Assembly: GCA_951406725.2 (NCBI GenBank) | Contig: OX597819.1 | Coordinates: 118,792,001-118,856,000, forward strand | Length of the DNA stretch: 64,000 nt | Direction: 5' to 3' | Source: Octopus vulgaris | Taxonomy: Eukaryota | Shown: piece after piece, positions 1,996-62,455 of the stretch | Numbering within the stretch: the stretch's first letter is position 1 | How the letters are laid out: every line of letters begins with the position of its first letter | The notes under the pieces: generated by a model | What the model was told of the DNA's origin: nothing | Databases searched by the model: none | What the model saw: only the letters and a program-made list of their open reading frames with translations | Made by a program: the position numbers and the translations under genes

Positions 1996-2324
1996 ACTTA
2001 TAAACAAGGGCAAAAGAAAATTATCCCTATGCCTATATGCTGATAACAATCTTTTAAATCGTCAATTTCCACATATTATTATACCCACTACAGAAATACG
2101 TTGTGCCAAAATCGAGGAAAGCTAGCCAACAGAAATTTTTTTCAAGTTCGTTATTTCTATATTGAATCAATTTCGGAATGAATCTCATAATAGATGTTTT
2201 CCTCTTCAGTAGAAAATACGAATAGAAATAAATGAAATACCCACATGCGCCCATGAAAGAATAGTTGAAGCTAAAGTCATGAGTACATATAAGTACCCCA
2301 GATATATCTAAATATAAAATCCTT

Positions 2325-9608: not shown

Positions 9609-10641
9609 GATTTTGATGATTTTGATTTGATTGATTTTGATTTTGATTTTGATTTTGATTGATTTTGATTTTGATTTTTCCAGTTTCAGCTTATGAGCTG
9701 TGGCCGTGCTGGGGCACCGCCATTTGGTGTTGCTACTTGGTTTCACTTCATGAAGGCTTTCTAGCAGCTGCTATTTGGTGCATGAGAGAGTTCGATGCAG
9801 CTGCCCTCATCTGCCCCTCCTGCCGTGAAGTTGGTTCATCTGGGACACCTGAGAGGAAGAGATCCAGCTTCATTTTAAAGACATCTGTATCCACCCCATG
9901 CAGGTCTCTCAGGTTCTTCGGGAGGATATTGAAGAGCTGTGAGCCTCGGAAGCCCAGGCTATCACAGAATCTTGTCCTACATCTTGATGGCAAGTTTGGA
10001 GTCCTAGGCACCACGCAGTGGCGCCCAGTTCTGGCATTTGCGTAACTCTCGATGCCAAAGTTCAGGACACTTCCCTCCAGGATCTTCCAGATGTATATTA
10101 TGGCATATCTTTCCCGCCTACGCTCCAGGGAATATAATGTTAATTTCCTGAGTCTTTCCCAGTAGCTTACATTCTGCATAGAGGCTATCTTCTTCGTGTA
10201 GCTACGTTGGATCGCCTCGAGCTCTGTGATCAACTTGACACTGGATGGTGACCATAACTGAGAGCAGTAGTCAAAGTGGCTTAGGACAAGTGTCCTCCAG
10301 AGGACCATCATGGTTTCTTGTTCTCTTGTTCTAAAGGTTCTGAGGATCCATCCGGCCAGTCGTCTACATTTCATTGCCAATTTAGCAACATGTACACGAA
10401 AGGTCGCGTCATCACTCATGTAAATACCTAGGTCACGCACTGATTGTGCCTCTGGGATTGCTATTCCTCCGGGTCCAGTGTATTCATTGGGTATTGCATT
10501 TAGTTTTGCATGCTGATAGTATAGAGCTTGAAACTTTTCAGCATTGAACTGCATGCTATTCTTTTCGGCCCACTTGTATATTTTGTCTAGCTCACATTGC
10601 AGGTGTTTAGTGTCCTCAGGGTTCTGTATTGCCTGTGAGAC
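9609..10641 (-). mobile_element. 5'-truncated CR1/L2-group LINE (ORF2 C-terminus, 3' UTR stem-loop, (AAAATC)n tail)
   Basis: Open ORF to the stop at 9748: LQCELDKIYKWAEKNSMQFNAEK, VRDLGI, DYCSQLWSP, LEAIQR, YWERL, LYSLERRRERY. Tandem tail at 9609-9680; (TA)n on both sides. Confidence 0.92.
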
Positions 10642-10657
10642 TATATATATATATATG

Positions 10658-10742
<85 letters not shown>

Positions 10743-11046
10743 CAAACTACGATGAACGTAAACAAACAAAATTTGGTTTAGAAGAGTTGAGATTTCTTAG
10801 ATGTGATTTTAAATTCTAAAACGCACGATAATGCTAATAATATAACCTGAAAAGGATAAGCTACCCATATTTTGCAGGAAAATGTGTCGGCGGCCCCAAA
10901 AAACTGAATTCATTTCTGATAATATTTCCAGTTTAATAATTAGATTATAAATAGTTTTGTGCATATAAATTTATATATATACTTTAATTATAATAGTGCA
11001 AACATTATCAGAAAACAATTGTATTTCTCTTCTCAAATATATAGAC

Positions 11047-35447: not shown

Positions 35448-35487
<40 letters not shown>

Positions 35488-35638
35488 AATATAAGAGAGT
35501 GGTCACTATATTGCTCACTCTAGCACCAGTTAATCCAAAAGGTTTCAACCACGAAAATACATGCTTACCATGAAAGTCAGTACGATTGTTAGCTCACACG
35601 GACAGGGCAAATAAAAAATAACAAAAATACAGATTATT

Positions 35639-35717
35639 TTGGGACAATTGTTTCGCTATTAATGAATTAAATGTAATTTTACTTACAAAAAAAATCCATT
35701 TGTAGCTCGTCAGCCAA
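35639..35717 (-). ncRNA. Type-I hammerhead ribozyme (minus arm)
   Basis: Reverse complement of 36386-36463. Confidence 0.85.
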
Positions 35718-36385
35718 GACTATCTGGATGAAATCCACTCAATCACACGCCAGATTTTACCATAACGATAAATACGCGTGTGGTTCAATTGATTACATCC
35801 GACGTTATAATTCAAATGCCCCAACCAACAGCGCGCCAAACTTTCACGGAAAACAAATACAGCATTTAGAAATAAATGCAGCATAATTATAATTAATTAA
35901 TAAGGGTGAGAGAATTAGATACTAATTTAATAGTATATTTATTCAACACCAAGTGGCCTAGTGCTTCGAGAAACCTGGATTATTATAATATTTTATAACA
36001 TATTATAATATTTTTACAAAATAAATATAAGAGAGTGGTCACTATATTGCTCACTCTAGCACCAGTTAATCCAAAAGGTTTCAATTTTGTAAAAATATTA
36101 TATGTTATAAAATATTATAATAATCCAGGTTTCTCGAAGCACTAGGCCACTTGGTGTTGAATAAATATACTATTAAATTAGTATCTAATTCTCTCACCCT
36201 TATTAATTAATTATAATTATGCTGCATTTATTTCTAAATGCTGTATTTGTTTTCCGTGAAAGTTTGGCGCGCTGTTGGTTGGGGCATTTGAATTATAACG
36301 TCGGATGTAATCAATTGAACCACACGCGTATTTATCGTTATGGTAAAATCTGGCGTGTGATTGAGTGGATTTCATCCAGATAGTC

Positions 36386-36463
36386 TTGGCTGACGAGCTA
36401 CAAATGGATTTTTTTGTAAGTAAAATTACATTTAATTCATTAATAGCGAAACAATTGTCCCAA
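36386..36463 (+). ncRNA. Type-I hammerhead ribozyme, predicted cleavage after GUC at 36459
   Basis: ttgg-CTGACGA-gcta...tagc-GAAA-caattg-TC-ccaa: canonical core, stems I and II paired, palindromic stem III. Confidence 0.88.
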
Positions 36464-36741
36464 AATAATCTGTATTTTTGTTATTTTTTATTTGCCCTGT
36501 CCGTGTGAGCTAACAATCGTACTGACTTTCATGGTAAGCATGTATTTTCGTGGTTGAAACCTTTTGGATTAACTGGTGCTAGAGTGAGCAATATAGTGAC
36601 CACTCTCTTATATTTATTTTGTAAAAATATTATAATATGTTATAAAATATTATAATAATCCAGGTTTCTCGAAGCACTAGGCCACTTGGTGTTGAATAAA
36701 TATACTATTAAATTAGTATCTAATTCTCTCACCCTTATTAA

Positions 36742-36836
<95 letters not shown>

Positions 36837-55354: not shown

Positions 55355-55380
55355 TAAATAATAATAATAATAATAATAAT

Positions 55381-55437
<57 letters not shown>

Positions 55438-55447
55438 AATAATAATG

Positions 55448-55484
<37 letters not shown>

Positions 55485-55536
55485 TAATAATAATAATAAT
55501 AATAATGATCATAATGATAATAATAATGATATTAAA

Positions 55537-55577
<41 letters not shown>

Positions 55578-55677
55578 TCATAATGATAATAATAATGATA
55601 TTAAAAATAATAATAATAATAATAATAATAAAAATAATAATAATAATGATCATAATGATAATAATAATGATATTAAA

Positions 55678-55727
<50 letters not shown>

Positions 55728-55760
55728 TCATAATGATAATAATAATGATATTAAAAATAA

Positions 55761-55829
<69 letters not shown>

Positions 55830-55857
55830 TCATAATGATAATAATAATGATATTAAA

Positions 55858-55904
<47 letters not shown>

Positions 55905-55947
55905 TAATAATAATAATGATCATAATGATAATAATAATGATATTAAA

Positions 55948-55997
<50 letters not shown>

Positions 55998-56025
55998 TCA
56001 TAATGATAATAATAATGATATTAAA

Positions 56026-56081
<56 letters not shown>

Positions 56082-56124
56082 TAATAATAATAATGATCAT
56101 AATGATAATAATAATGATATTAAA

Positions 56125-56188
<64 letters not shown>

Positions 56189-56240
56189 TTAATAATAATA
56201 ATAATAATAATAATAAAGCAATAATTATAAATATAATAAC
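55355..56240. repeat. ~880-bp (AAT)n array with 8 higher-order GATCATAATGATAATAATAATGATATTAAA units
   Basis: DHNDNNNDIK appears 8 times in the ORF translation. Confidence 0.92.
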
Positions 56241-56269
56241 GATGGAATCTCCCGGCGAAGACGACGAAT

Positions 56270-56442
56270 AAGTGCTCAGCACATTGACGTTGAATGAATA
56301 GGTTCACGATGTACCACACGCCATATATCGAAGTGATCGCAGAGCAATGTGAGATAAAGTGTTTTGCTCATGAACACAATGCACCACCAATGACCTCGCG
56401 GCCGTGAGCGCTACACCCTAAACACTAGACCATGCGCCCACA
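56270..56442 (-). mobile_element. SINE family D, degenerate
   Basis: gatcgcagagcaatgtgagataaagtgttttgctcatgaacacaa...ccctaaacactagaccatgcgcc. Confidence 0.6.
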
Positions 56443-56534
56443 ATAATAATCATAATAATAATGTTTTTTTCCAGTATAGACACAAGGCCTGGATTTTATG
56501 GGGAGGGAGAAAGTCGATAACATCGACCCTAGTT

Positions 56535-56612
<78 letters not shown>

Positions 56613-56664
56613 GTTATTATTATTATTATTATATAATTATATTATACATATTATATTATATTAT

Positions 56665-56695
<31 letters not shown>

Positions 56696-56716
56696 TCATT
56701 GTTATCATTATTATTA

Positions 56717-56831
56717 TAGGCGTAGGAGTGGGTGTGTGGTAAGTAAATTGCTTACAAAATACACGTCATTTGCGTGTTTGGAGTCTCTAAGGCCAGGGTT
56801 CGTTCTCCTAGATGTTGTTGAGAATATATGG

Positions 56832-56887
<56 letters not shown>

Positions 56888-57110
56888 GGTTCTAGGTGCA
56901 GTCCTACTGCCTGGCACCTTGGGAACATGTCTGCTGCTATAGCCTCGGACCGTCCAAAGCCTTGCTAGACGGAAACTGAAAGAAGCTTGTCGTATATATG
57001 TATATATATATATGTGTGTGTGTGTTTGTTTGTGTTTTCTGCCTTTGTCCCCCCAACATCGCTTGACAACCGATGGTAGTATGTTTACGTCCCCGTAACT
57101 TAGCAGTTGG
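56717..57110 (+). mobile_element. SINE family A interrupted by an insertion plus (TA)n (56760-56884)
   Basis: Head taggcgtaggagtgggtgtgtggtaag, then foreign sequence, then catggttctagg...gcttgacaaccgatgg. Confidence 0.8.
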
Positions 57111-58487
57111 GAAGTTCCAAATAGGATGGTGACGCTCTCACCATTTACTTATCATGGGAATTAATTTTGTAGTATTTCAGGCATCACAGTGGATGTACTG
57201 CCCTTGTCTATCAAGTATTCGGAGTACTCTTTTTCAGCGAAGATTGGGCAGCCAGAAACATGATCAATTGTCTCTTTGAATTTTCCGCAAATCCTTAAGG
57301 ACATTTGCTTGGTAATTTCTGGTAGGTAAGCTCTGGTTTTGCACGGCAATAATAAAAACCGCCATTACCTTTTTCAGACCTGTCCCTTGTAGGCATTGGT
57401 GTTAGATTGCTTAATATGTGGCTTGGACAGGCGGTTAGATTATTTTCCATGTAGGAGTTTGCCTTTCTAGTTGCCTTCGGTATATTATTAATGCAAGCCT
57501 ATTTTGCTTTTTGCTTGATGTATTTGCATCAGTGATAGGTATTTCACTATTTGTATCTCGTTGTTCAAATCAAAATCAGGAGAAGCAATGGTAGGTCTGT
57601 CAGTATTTGGGTGTCTTTGACCATTCTTATTGTTAGATTGTAGGCCAAGAGACTTTAAAATTTCTTACTAAGCTTCATGATTGAAGCATGCATGTAATCT
57701 TCATGCTGCAGTGCAGTTCGCAAGAGCACGTCACTTGTATTAAGATGCATTTCAAGGCCTATTATTGCTGATTTGAAGGATTATTCGAGATGTATCTGGC
57801 CTTTCCGCCTATTTTTCTTGGGATATAAATGTTGTCTATATCTAACTTTGTATATTGCCTTCGGTACCTTGTAAATAATTTAGGTTCTTTCCTTCCATAT
57901 TCTGCATGTTAGCGAGACTCCACTTAATGATACGAAAACCATAAGTGCTTCTTGGTATGATGAAAAAATTGATCGCATTAATTCTTTTCGCAGCATTTAA
58001 GTCTGAGTTTAGGACCATTTTCACCCTTCGGTAGCATTCCTTGTAAATTTTCTCTTTCATTTTAGAGTGCTGGATACCAATACCTTCATTGGTTCCCAGG
58101 TATTTGTATACTTCGGATTGGTCTAGGTTTCGAATAGCTATGGAGGTATCAAGTTCTATGTTTTATGCCTTTATGAACTTCTCTGCCTTTAAAGTAGCCT
58201 TTGCACACTTATAGATTCCGAATTCCATACCTGTATCAGAGCTGAAATCTTTGACAATCTTCAGGTGCTTTTCTAATTCTTTTTCAATTTTGGCAAACAG
58301 TTGTGGTTCATCCATATAGAGTAGGTTGAGAACATATGGAAATATATATATGTATATATATATATGACAATCAAGGAACGGCCATAATAGGCCATTCACC
58401 CACTAGAAATAACAGCCAAAGCTTTAACCGCAAAATAACATTAATTCCGTAAACCAGGAGAAAATTAAAAAAACATTTACCCTGTAA

Positions 58488-58592
58488 TTTCTTATACGAT
58501 GCACCGTTTCATCTACTGTTTAATGGTAAACTAACCTGATTAAATTAAATCAAGCCAATCTTCCATAGGCCCTTAGATTCCTCAGTAAGAAA
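58488..58592 (-). ncRNA. Type-I hammerhead ribozyme (minus arm)
   Basis: Reverse complement of 59094-59198. Confidence 0.85.
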
Positions 58593-59093
58593 TAGCCAGA
58601 ACGGAACAGATATTTTCACGAGGCATTTCCGTCCCTGCCTCGGCAATATCTGACCTAAAATTTTCAAATCATCGCACTCGCGCCAAATTTATCGGCAGCA
58701 AATAAATATAAGCCGCCGATTCCATTACGGAATCATGGTTTACGGAATTAATGTTATTTTGCGGTTAAAGCTTTGGCTGTTATTTCTAGTGGGTGAATGG
58801 CCTATTATGGCCGTTCCTTGATTGTGATGTTGATCTTATAAATGGTCTATGATTATTTAATTTTTTCCCCACTAGGCCGCTGGTGGCAAAAAAAATTCTA
58901 CAAAATTTTTTTTTTGCCACCCTATATTGATTAATTATGAATTTTCTGGTTGATTCCGTAATGGAATCGGCGGCTTATATTTATTTGCTGCCGATAAATT
59001 TGGCGCGAGTGCGATGATTTGAAAATTTTAGGTCAGATATTGCCGAGGCAGGGACAGAAATGCCTCGTGAAAATATCTGTTCCGTTCTGGCTA

Positions 59094-59198
59094 TTTCTTA
59101 CTGAGGAATCTAAGGGCCTATGGAAGATTGGCTTGATTTAATTTAATCAGGTTAGTTTATCATTAAACAGTAGATGAAACGGTGCATCGTATAAGAAA
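59094..59198 (+). ncRNA. Type-I hammerhead ribozyme, predicted cleavage after GUA at 59191
   Basis: tttctta-CTGAGGA-atcta...tagat-GAAA-cggtgcatcg-TA-taagaaa: 7-bp stem I, 5-bp stem II, quasi-palindromic stem III. Confidence 0.88.
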
Positions 59199-60439
59199 TT
59201 ACAGGGTAAATGTTTTTTTAATTTTCTCCTGGTTTACGGAATTAATGTTATTTTGCGGTTAAAGCTTTGGCTGTTATTTCTAGTGGGTGAATGGCCTATT
59301 ATGGCCGTTCCTTGATTGTGATGTTGATCTTATAAATGGTCTATGACTATTTAATTCTTTCCCACTAGGCCACTGGTGGCAAAAAAATTCTACAAAATGT
59401 TTTTTTGCCACCCTATATTGATTAATTATGTATATATATATACACACGGTTCCAGGTGCAGTCCTACTGCCTGGCTCCTTGGGAACGTGTCTGCTGCTAT
59501 AGCCTCGGGCCGTCCAAAGCCTTGCTAGATGGAAACTGAAAGAAGCTTTCTGGACAAAGATCTTACACCGTCCCTTACCTTTTTTCGGTTTCATGGACAA
59601 TGAGAACAGATCAAGGCAGAATAGTAATGGTTGTATTGATTCACATTGAAAAACACCACAGGCAATATTTATGTCTGTTGAAGGGGTATAGTTTAAAATA
59701 AGGTTGGATCTCCACGAATTATGGTTATCTTTAAAATGTTCATAACTGTGGAAACTATCTTTCAAATTTCCAAGGCCTTGATAACCCGTGCATGGGGAAC
59801 ACTGTCAAAAGTCTTTTTGTAATCTATCCAAGCGATGCTGTGTTTTCTGCGTTTGGATTTGCAATTTTCAATGCTCATTTTATCAATCAGTAATTGGTCC
59901 TTACGTCCATCTGAACCCCTTTTACATCCATATGCTCTATTCACTATTATAGATATTAATCGTTTATATATTGCGGTGAAACCTGTTATGGGTCGGTATT
60001 CTTGGGGGGGGGGGTTCAGTAGTTTTTTTTTAGTAAGAGATATGTAATCCCTTCTGTAACCCACTTTGGGGCTTTCACAAGGTTGGACATGACTTCATTG
60101 AGTGCTACGGCTAAGTTGTGGTGAATGCTCATTAGAAGTTTGGAATCTTACCTATGCCCGGGGATATTGCGAATAATATATATTATTCCTTTATAGTTTC
60201 GCCACTTTCCAGCTTGATCTCATGGTTTTTACTCATTTTTACCCGGTTGAGAATCATTACACCACGTTTCTCGATTCCAAATTCCTTGCCGTCAAACTCT
60301 CAATTTCGTTCTCAGTCTTAGCAAATAGCTTTAGGTCAACCATAAATCACAGGTTGTTTGCTTTCACTCTGCCTAGCATGTACCCCACACCCATCATTCT
60401 TAAAACGCTCTTTAGTGGCAGTATGCAGACAACGAATAG

Positions 60440-62455
60440 GACAGATTGTCCACTTGAAAGATATTTATCTCTCCCAGCTTATCTCCCCATGCTTCAGTTT
60501 ATCACATTTACATTCAGTTTCGCATTAACTTCAGAATATTGTGCAATGTGTTTTGTTTATTTGAACATGATCTACCATCTGCACTCAACTCTCAACAGCA
60601 TGCTTCAGATACTGGAGATATAACATGTTTCTGAGATTTTAAAATTGGCTATCTTATCTTGGCATTTTTATGTTTCATATCTTGTGCAAAGTGCACATGT
60701 GATTTTTTTCGAATTTCTTCATGTTAGTAGTAGGGAGTCTATGCTTCTTCCCGATATAAAGTGTCCTCAAAATATAAAATCTGTATACACTTATTTTAGT
60801 TTTCCTACTGATATCTTGTTCATACTACAAACGATGGGAATTTGCTTCTAAAATCAATCGTAGATTTAAATATTCTAACCTTGGTTTCGTCATCGAGAGT
60901 ATTCTTAAAGTTTATTGTACTTCCAAGATATTTAAATGACCTTACACGTTTATGTGGCCTGTTGTTTATCATCATGATTGATTCTTGAGTATTGCGTGTT
61001 CCTGGCCTAGGTTGGAATAAAACTTCAGTCTTCTTGAGGCTGATAACCAGTCCAAATGCACGAGCTGCTGCAACAAATCTGCCAATCGTTTCCTGAATTC
61101 CCTAAAGTATGGAAGAAATCAAAGCACAATCATCAACAAGAAGAAATCACGAATGGTCTCTTTCTTGGTCTATTCCTTTGATCTGACACTTTGCCCTTTC
61201 ATGTATAATAGACCTCCTTATATGGGAAACTGGAATTTTTCATATTCATGGTAATCCCTGAAAGCATGTTGGAGCTTCAATGAAAAGAAAACGAAAAAAG
61301 GTAGAAGAGCTAAAACACATCCCTATTTGGTTCCAGTGGCAACAGGAAAAATGCCTCTGAACATTGACTACTAGATATTATTGGTGCTATCATTCTTTTC
61401 TGTAAGGATATTATTACCCTCATAATCTATCAGGAGGTTATGGTTTTCACAAAATTTACCAGAGTATCTGACGATTCACTTAACATAGGCCTCAGTCAAT
61501 TCAACAAAAATGAAAAGTAAGAGCGGCGAGCTGGCAGAAACGTTAGCACGCCGGGCGAAATGCTTTGTGGTATTTCGTCTGTCGTTACGTTCCGAGTTCA
61601 AATTCTGCCGAGGTCGACTTTCCCTTTCATCCTCCAGGGGTCAATAAATTAAGTACCAGTTACGCACTGGGGTCGATGAAATCGATTTAATCCGTTTGTC
61701 TGCCCTTGTTTGTCCCCTCTGTGTTTAGCCCCTTGTGGGTAGTAAAATAAAACAATTCAACACATCTACAGTTCTGTATATTGCTCATGTGCGTTCTCTT
61801 GTTGGAAGGCAAATATTAAGTCATCTGTAGCTCTCCTAGCTCGAAATCTACATTGGGATTCAGGATATTTACTGTTTATTAGATTCTAATGATGCGGTTA
61901 AAGAAGATTGTTTCCAGCTATGCACAACAAGCTTATTCCTCTGTGATTAGCACACACTCTTCTCCTCCTTGTACAATTGCTTTATAGATGCATCATCTTT
62001 GAACTGCTAAGGAAGAGATCCATTTCCCAGGTCAAATACAAGTTGTCTGCTACTATGCTTTTACACTTCTATGTTAATATTGTCTTACCCAGGAGCTTAA
62101 ATATTGGGAAGCTATTTTCTTTGCAGTACTTATCTCTTTCAAGGAAGTATCTTCCGCTGGTTTTCCAATTATAGGCCACTAGTTGATTACATGAAGTGTT
62201 CAGACCATTTTTCAGAATTTCCTCCTTGCTGCTTAAGTTTTCTTTTTGTCGTTTGAGAGAACAGAGTCTGTGTTAACCTTTCTTGAACCAAATGTACCCT
62301 ACAGATTTTCATAAATCCGTTCAAATTGTAAGACTTAGCAGCCTGTTCTAATTCTTGGGTGTTTTTACTTTGTTTCGTTTTGGCCATCAAGAATTTTACA
62401 TCACAATCAGCTTATTCTGAGTAGTTTTTCTAGAGACATATGAGGATCTGGGTGT
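60440..62455 (-). mobile_element. Decayed RTE-clade LINE, interrupted by a SINE B
   Basis: Minus translations FLLVDDCAL, RFVAAARAFGLVISLKKTEVLFQP, SFKYLGSTI and KWSEHF. Confidence 0.75.
61521..61750 (+). mobile_element. SINE family B, full length
   Basis: gcggcgagctggcagaaacgttagcacgccgggcgaaatg...ttagccccttgtgggtagtaaaa. Confidence 0.9.

Follow-up and report, generated by a model that had tools for sequence, protein, structure and literature searches.

Element B, a 1.07-kb non-coding insert at positions 58364–59430 of the 64-kb window (the whole stretch of DNA that was analysed), is probably (with a confidence of roughly 0.8) a non-autonomous hammerhead retroelement of the PLE/non-LTR retrozyme kind, which would have been copied into (TA)n by the RT-endonuclease of a candidate autonomous PLE. 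Having entered a (TA)n tract as an insertion, it is a genuine representative of an established type of small parasitic retroelement; it is neither an autonomous PLE nor an 'active' retrozyme copy.

Layout and insertion site of element B

As the initial annotation had proposed, element B is bordered on both sides by (TA)n, with the left part of the target tract at 58342–58363 (one GT interruption) and the right part at 59431–59442. Next to the left tract lies an inverted, 5'-truncated copy on the minus strand (58364–58735), the reverse complement of 58951–59322, which ends at an inner terminus directly beside (TA)n and differs from its forward counterpart by 3 substitutions in 372 nt. The arm had been described as 369 nt long; its presence was borne out, and its true length is 372 nt, since the shorter figure stops 3 nt early at a single mismatch. 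The head-to-head junction 58735/58736 (58733–58738) has a 2-nt microhomology plus one mismatch and is not palindromic. It is followed on the plus strand by a pLTR-like, 5'-truncated partial tandem of 0.41 unit (58736–58939), which ends in the terminal motif, and then by the full unit (58940–59430), which is non-coding and strongly structured, with 36% GC. The forward array (58736–59430) spans 695 nt, or 1.41 periods of 494 nt, in line with the 1.4 tandem units of ~494 nt initially annotated. Likewise, the overlap of ~90 nt reported between the arms was recovered as the segment 59230–59322, which is common to all three copies. The outer end of the element reaches past the inner end by a one-sided plus-strand 'tail' of 108 nt (59323–59430), the last ~70 nt of which (59363–59430) include a hairpin.

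The partial unit differs from 59230–59430 by 4 substitutions and 3 single-base indels. We rejected the use of two different templates for the tandem copies, because three of these seven differences are single-base homopolymer indels and a fourth also falls in a homopolymer run, which leaves three transitions. A tRNA or Pol III origin was also rejected, given that the 64-kb window contains no tRNA and the unit lacks a B box. The longest ATG-started stretch in the unit is 30 codons; the telomerase-like RT plus GIY-YIG ORF of an autonomous PLE is absent from it, and a set of PLE protein motifs had no match in the six frames of the window.

The history of the site could be reconstructed from its flanks. 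An empty paralogous site at 56817–56988 has the same 21 nt to the left of an uninterrupted (TA)n and the same SINE-like fragment to the right, and contains no element. At the occupied site this truncated SINE-like repeat lies on the minus strand (59443–59548), and its (TA)n tail took the insertion; the fragment and its paralog are 93.6% identical over 109 nt and share the same 12-nt deletion and truncation point. Outside element B, both flanks belong to a decayed host LINE on the minus strand (57291–60135, RVT_1 match), interrupted near residue 690 of its relative P0001: the right flank matches P0001 as far as about this residue, and the left flank takes up the match from there. The empty site and the colinear LINE thus give the order of events: the LINE, then the SINE fragment with its (TA)n, then element B. 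The target is (TA)n on both flanks, where a target-site duplication would be indistinguishable. The window as a whole is AT-rich, animal-like DNA, rich in microsatellites, and its repeats may resemble those of octopus genomes in their overall landscape.

Hammerhead ribozymes and their predicted folding

A complete type I hammerhead was found on each strand, in agreement with the intact motif (CUGAGGA/GAAA/GUA) initially annotated in each arm. The plus-strand ribozyme (59093–59199) has CUGAGGA at 59101, GAAA at 59176–59179 and GUA, and the hammerhead scan reproduced the cut site previously predicted after 59191; its mirror on the minus strand (58487–58593) has CUGA at 58585 and a predicted cut after 58495. 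The core follows the type I pattern CUGANGA/GAAA/UH with three helices. Helix I is open and has 8 bp, one more than the 7 bp first given; helix II has 5 bp enclosing a 58-nt hairpin insert, and helix III is short and palindromic. A strict scan of the 64-kb window returned two matches, both in element B, and none of 20,000 shuffled element B units was positive. When helix I was relaxed, the scan added both ribozymes of a second element (element A, described below) and one stray match at 2209. Rfam gave no hammerhead match in the window at the gathering score, and at E up to 10 its two matches were chance snoRNA hits (E 4.5–6.5), none of them a hammerhead. The 58-nt insert in helix II is the likely reason for the missing Rfam match.

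We then considered the folding of the unit as a circle. The circular ~494-nt monomer, whose fold had been put forward as a check, is predicted to be far more stable than its shuffles (MFE z = −5.6, with 0 of 60 shuffles as stable), and the circular element A unit gave z = −6.0 (40 shuffles). In a 117-nt fragment, helices I and II are predicted to form with probabilities mostly about 0.87 and helix III with about 0.1; the predicted active fold lies above the minimum by 1.5 kcal/mol in this fragment and by 3.6 kcal/mol in the circle. Pairing of the helix III segment is predicted at −19.5 kcal/mol in the homodimer versus −1.2 in the monomer, which matches the dimer pattern known for metazoan hammerheads (PMC4209133; PMC6765202). 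In longer RNAs starting at 58940 or 58736 the active fold is rare, with a helix I probability of about 0.01–0.02. The element B ribozyme probably cleaves weakly or as a dimer.

Moreover, in a modelled read-through transcript of element B, 100% of the plus-strand ribozyme is in duplex with the inverted arm, and in such RNA the 372-bp fold-back probably silences the ribozyme at this locus. The initial annotation had envisaged a ~494-nt circle from element B. The locus alone cannot supply one: its two ribozymes lie on opposite strands, and because there is one per strand, no cut-to-cut monomer can arise from it.

Relatives of element B in the window and in public sequencing runs

Element A (35481–36749) lies 23 kb from element B and consists of an inverted arm of 603 nt (35481–36083) and a forward part (36084–36749) of 1.24 units of 535 nt, with a hammerhead CUGA at 36390 and a 130-nt tail. 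The same architecture of fold-back plus partial tandem had been noted for both elements, and this stands. In both, the inverted arm stops at an inner site, and the outer site at which the tandem arm stops lies further on, by 130 nt in A and 108 nt in B. Element A also has one ribozyme per strand, its head-to-head junction is non-palindromic with 1 nt of microhomology, and in the ribozymes of both elements helix II contains a long hairpin and helix III is self-complementary.

The two elements had been taken as unrelated and as two independent families, and the comparison of their sequences contradicts both statements. From the cut site to the right end they are colinear, with a score of 117 versus a maximum of 68.5 in 500 dinucleotide shuffles. 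Their last ~70 nt score 64.5, whereas no dinucleotide shuffle (of 500) exceeded 33.0 and no random window segment (of 475) exceeded 30.0, and the version of this terminus in the copy-1 tail scores 60.5 versus a maximum of 34.5 in 1,905 segments. A shared 16–17-nt motif occurs five times in the 64-kb window, always inside A and B (0.00 expected). Four other segments were weak, their scores being reached by 5, 8, 22 and 30 of 500 shuffles. Judging from this significant terminus and the equivalent inner and outer ends, A and B are distant relatives or clients of one partner. Because they share the ~70-nt terminus, they are not independent witnesses. The shared mechanism that had been proposed holds in the sense that both reflect one mechanism; it is the published insertion structure of PLEs (PMC8557442, Fig. 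2; PMC3846280) and not a new one.

The element B unit is part of a family that is abundant and occurs head-to-tail. Part of the unit occurs in 20 listed runs from 8 studies and four organisms, the best of which contains 0.61 of its words. None of the listed runs is given as RNA; X1 and X10 may be RNA and were counted neither way on expression. Contigs of four of these runs were mapped on 58940–59430, X19 and the other runs with a small share being left out; one of the four, X15, was covered to about 76%, so that its counts are lower bounds. At least 7,324, 1,720, 191 and 118 contigs matched the unit in the four runs, and in each of them the contigs covered 29 of 29 bins. The summed contig depth was not taken as a copy number. 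Among the 24 of 125 loose ends listed, (TA)n follows 59322/59323 in all four runs (at least 14, 7, 1 and 1 contigs), and six further X15 contigs have their (TA)n loose end at 59328. The fixed inner end of the family therefore coincides exactly with the end of the element B inverted arm. Joints from 59428–59430 to 58940–58943 make up 10 of the 12 joints listed out of 21 in X15 and X16; this recurrence shows that the head-to-tail joint is not peculiar to the element B locus. The fold-back joint of element B itself was absent among these 12 of 21 joints, and no mapped contig of the four runs spans the whole 58940–59430 stretch.

The variants within the family bear on the ribozyme. Twelve of the 40 variants listed (of 63) fall in it. 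The 12 core positions that are conserved are untouched by these 40, and two variants lie at N7, the sole free core position, which in X15 carries T at 47% and C at 12% of depth. Seven of the listed variants lie in helices: four stay paired as G-U, two have the partner change present and one has not. In helix I, the pair 59096/59196 varies at 13% and 16% in X15 and, less well matched, at 10% and 5% in X16, and the variants of the pair 59171/59112 reach 26% and 42%. The exception, 59175 T>C in helix II (25% in X15), breaks its pair, with no partner change among the variants listed. The ribozyme is thus conserved as a structure in the family; since the variants are unphased, they support selection on the fold rather than prove it.

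Template, priming and rival explanations

PLE insertions have a known signature, namely a partial tandem, an inverted 5'-truncated copy at the 5' end and a one-sided tail (PMC8557442; PMC3846280; PMC8969392). Element B shares all three with PLEs, as well as the microsatellite target and a hammerhead within the repeat. It differs from them in that it carries no RT or GIY-YIG ORF, its junction is not palindromic, and its tail of 108 nt (130 nt in A) is three to four times the published 30–40 bp (PMC8557442; PMC11167929); a length of 31 bp is given in PMC3846280. A (TA)n target bias is described for the Naiad and Hydra clades (PMC8557442), and almost all Hydra-clade families in that paper share this target with element B. 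Hydra-clade PLEs have a sense hammerhead near the 3' end with a self-complementary helix III of 3–4 bp, and Penelope-13_HM has an attached inverted copy, with hammerheads listed on both strands in the supplement of the same paper. In contrast, the available files show no terminal sequence in common between these PLEs and element B, and their listed loop 2 is short (3–10 nt).

Retrozymes have been proposed to be non-autonomous PLEs (Li, Clavereau and Pollet 2026, 10.64898/2026.07.22.740005). The element B unit has the make-up of a retrozyme unit (494 nt, 36% GC, z = −5.6, a type I hammerhead and tandem joints) and resembles non-LTR retrozymes (PMC7229834) in being non-coding, low in GC and structured, in its single type I hammerhead, its head-to-tail joints, its abundant family and its presumed dependence on PLEs. 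Its length is above the 150–450 bp of Cervera and de la Pena (2020, PMC7229834) and inside the 51–972 bp of 10.64898/2026.07.22.740005. An active retrozyme is defined in the latter as no fewer than two units in succession that carry complete hammerheads on one strand; the element B copy falls outside this definition because it has one ribozyme per strand, and so does element A. The 58-nt helix II insert sets the element B hammerhead apart from those of metazoan retrozymes, and the inverted arm and the two fixed ends are outside the retrozyme descriptions in the available parts of these two papers (PMC7229834; 10.64898/2026.07.22.740005). The lengths of the tail and of the helix II insert likewise go beyond the published descriptions compared, as far as these were accessible.

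The biochemistry of PAc (Poseidon, Anolis; Frangieh et al. 2024, PMC11167929) offers a model for the insertion. In vitro, PAc cleaves AT-rich DNA on both strands and extends each of them; its RT starts at two internal sites, by which the tail is defined, and works mostly on uncut RNA. Element B is like PAc in its AT-rich target, and the PAc start sites lie downstream of the hammerhead; PAc differs in being autonomous, with a hammerhead that overlaps the ORF start and a tail of 30–40 bp. By analogy, the partner PLE would nick (TA)n, which is self-complementary, on both strands; cDNA synthesis would be primed by each 3'-OH, with the outer start site used for one cDNA and the inner for the other, and the two products would then meet and join head-to-head. 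The partner probably recognises the ~70-nt terminus common to A and B. Judged by coordinates, each of the four cDNA tracts in A and B crosses one ribozyme cut site, and a once-copied, cut linear monomer can therefore not be the template. This leaves an uncut multimer, which we slightly favour, a circle, which is less probable and still a serious contender, and a template jump by the RT, which is improbable.

The circular alternative concerns the same element and agrees with our preferred explanation on the mobilising enzyme; it differs in the template, which would be a circular monomer, a 494-nt RNA released from multimeric loci, ligated by the host and reverse-transcribed for more than one round. 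Circular folds of both units far more stable than their shuffles (z = −5.6 for B and −6.0 for A) are consistent with it, as is a family that keeps its ribozyme and has tandem joints; circles have been shown for coral, mussel and axolotl retrozymes (PMC7229834), and copies longer than a unit are a natural outcome of a circle (PMC4209133). On the other hand, each strand of the element B locus bears a single ribozyme, crossing of two cut sites is not seen in any of the four A and B tracts (a weak point, n = 4), PAc used uncut RNA and mutants of its hammerhead left insertion unaffected (PMC11167929), and only one of nine Xenopus dimers was cleaved in vitro (10.64898/2026.07.22.740005). We consider the circle quite possible, if not the better reading. 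It is unlikely that the inverted arm arose by self-priming, in which an antisense template or cDNA folds back, instead of by target priming on both strands. Such self-priming was suggested for Penelope elements of Adineta whose inverted junctions are palindromic (PMC3846280), and a small hairpin does lie at the start of the element B arm (58718–58734); yet the junction is not palindromic, the two arms begin at different positions of the unit (the equivalents of 58951 and 59230) in B and likewise in A, and the terminus of the inverted arm, which abuts (TA)n directly, is fixed and is a different one. The non-palindromic junctions with 1–2 nt of microhomology fit priming on both strands better.

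PLE copies are mostly 5'-truncated (PMC8557442; PMC8969392), so that element B might be the stump of an autonomous PLE, reduced to its pLTR, with no separate family. This is quite improbable, given that the unit end joins the unit's own start in the window, in X15 and in X16, that no ORF from an ATG exceeds 30 codons, and that all bins of the unit are covered in the four runs. A DNA-level event, such as a fold-back duplication, a MITE or a Foldback-type transposon with a chance or passive hammerhead, would account for the long inverted repeats formed by the outer 372 nt, and TA is a common target of DNA transposons. We regard it as very improbable: the repeats are not terminal on both sides, with a one-sided tail of 108 nt, their lengths differ between A and B, and a ribozyme absent from 20,000 shuffles and conserved as a structure is not a chance feature. 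Equally improbable is a misassembly, through a chimeric fold-back read or a collapsed repeat, even if tandem and inverted PLE structures trouble assemblers (PMC8557442) and no mapped contig of the four runs spans the locus. Two changes are private to the forward copy (59160 T and 59372 A, at positions where the family base makes up 99.8–99.9% of depth), and an allele at 59261 that is rare in X15 (3% of depth) is common to all three copies; a single event with later point mutations would give this pattern. Moreover, the left end lies exactly at the inner terminus of the family, the ends and the head-to-tail joint are family-wide features, and the flanks rebuild the empty site and the colinear LINE. 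The initial suggestion that the structure is not an assembly accident is therefore upheld.

Returning to the non-autonomous PLE-type retrozyme, we looked for its partner. The terminal motifs had no match in the PLE consensus files of PMC8557442, in which line breaks can hide a match, and by eye the 3' ends of Naiad_Obim, Naiad_Ovul, Naiad_Omin and Hydra-1_Obim bear no likeness to the element B terminus. No partner was thus recognised among the published cephalopod Naiad and Hydra consensus sequences. By target and ribozyme style, the Hydra and Neptune clades are candidate partners. Scans for the terminal motif elsewhere gave three metagenome loci, no viral locus and two prokaryote loci; the metagenome and prokaryote loci, with no match beyond the pattern itself, were taken as chance. 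No published description of the element B family was found in a search that left aside repeat databases, subscription papers and some supplements, and the accessible parts of PMC12602865 and PMC13282606 contain nothing on a structure like that of element B.

A more tentative idea, which we hold to be doubtful at present, is that A and B are sister families in a distinct group of PLE parasites, with a tail of 108–130 nt that includes a conserved recognition module of ~70 nt, and a helix II extended by a 45–60-nt hairpin that escapes standard models. If true, the rule of inner and outer ends for the inverted and tandem arms would be a record of strand-specific priming by a PLE dimer. The hammerhead 'half cores' reported 35–50 nt apart in some Naiad PLEs might be working ribozymes of the long-helix kind.

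The finding of a retrozyme-like unit with the full PLE insertion signature at one locus ties two literatures together and lends support to the idea that retrozymes of animals are mobilised by PLE enzymes. In the PLE literature available to us, the transposition cycle is still described as undefined, including how tandems, inversions and tails originate and what the hammerhead does. With its short unit, abundance, youth and two fixed ends, the family lends itself to a counting test of circle versus linear template, in which the distribution of arm lengths relative to the cut site would separate a circle from uncut linear RNA as the source of tandems. Finally, each insertion amounts to a perfect fold-back of ~370 bp, and, if transcribed, may be a source of double-stranded RNA.

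Fold-back junctions in elements A and B

When the 603-nt inverted arm of element A (the related 35.5-kb element, 35481-36749) was aligned with its forward copy, one single-base indel was the sole difference, and judged from this near-identity the element looks very young. Its forward array starts at 36084, the equivalent of 36616, at most 3 nt from the inner terminus.

Contigs from sequencing run X10 were aligned to one unit (58940-59430) of element B, the hammerhead-bearing insert at 58364-59430. At the loose end at 59322, one contig resembles a further fold-back junction: it combines a forward copy from the inner terminus, as in element A, with an inverted copy that ends near 59231, the point where the forward array of element B begins (59230 equivalent). 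This single contig is a hint that fixed sites may be preferred at 5' junctions.

Separately, a 9-nt word was observed on either side of the head-to-head junction of element B (58718-58748), beside the small hairpin that opens the inverted arm.

Repeats at the element B site and elsewhere in the window

The (TA)n tract holding element B belongs to a SINE-like fragment (59443-59548), and an empty-site paralog consisting of a SINE-like fragment and (TA)n lies at 56817-56988. Both SINE-like copies have in common a 12-nt deletion and a truncation, which four further copies in the window lack. The surrounding LINE is decayed (57291-60445, minus strand), carries an RVT_1 match and is about 50-65% identical to full-length relatives of ~1,200 aa. 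A second short match at 60293-60445 duplicates part of its RT, a sequence arrangement that suggests a rearranged or second LINE copy.

The interval 55357-56717 holds a long (AAT)n array, in which the triplet is repeated about 295 times, and after it an inverted tract of (ATT)n. On the minus strand, a 332-codon open frame adjoining (TA)n (9748-10746) resembles the C-terminal part of another LINE; a search of this frame for Pfam matches returned none. Relaxed scan settings also gave a weak hammerhead-like match at 2160-2215 (minus strand; 6-bp helix I with wobbles), which is probably due to chance.

Hammerhead half-cores in Naiad PLEs

The methods and File S1 of PMC8557442 mark hammerhead half-cores 35-50 nt apart in eight Naiad families, two of them from cephalopods. 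This spacing is close to the 51 and 68 nt found in elements A and B, and the half-cores described in those sections could possibly be overlooked long-helix ribozymes.
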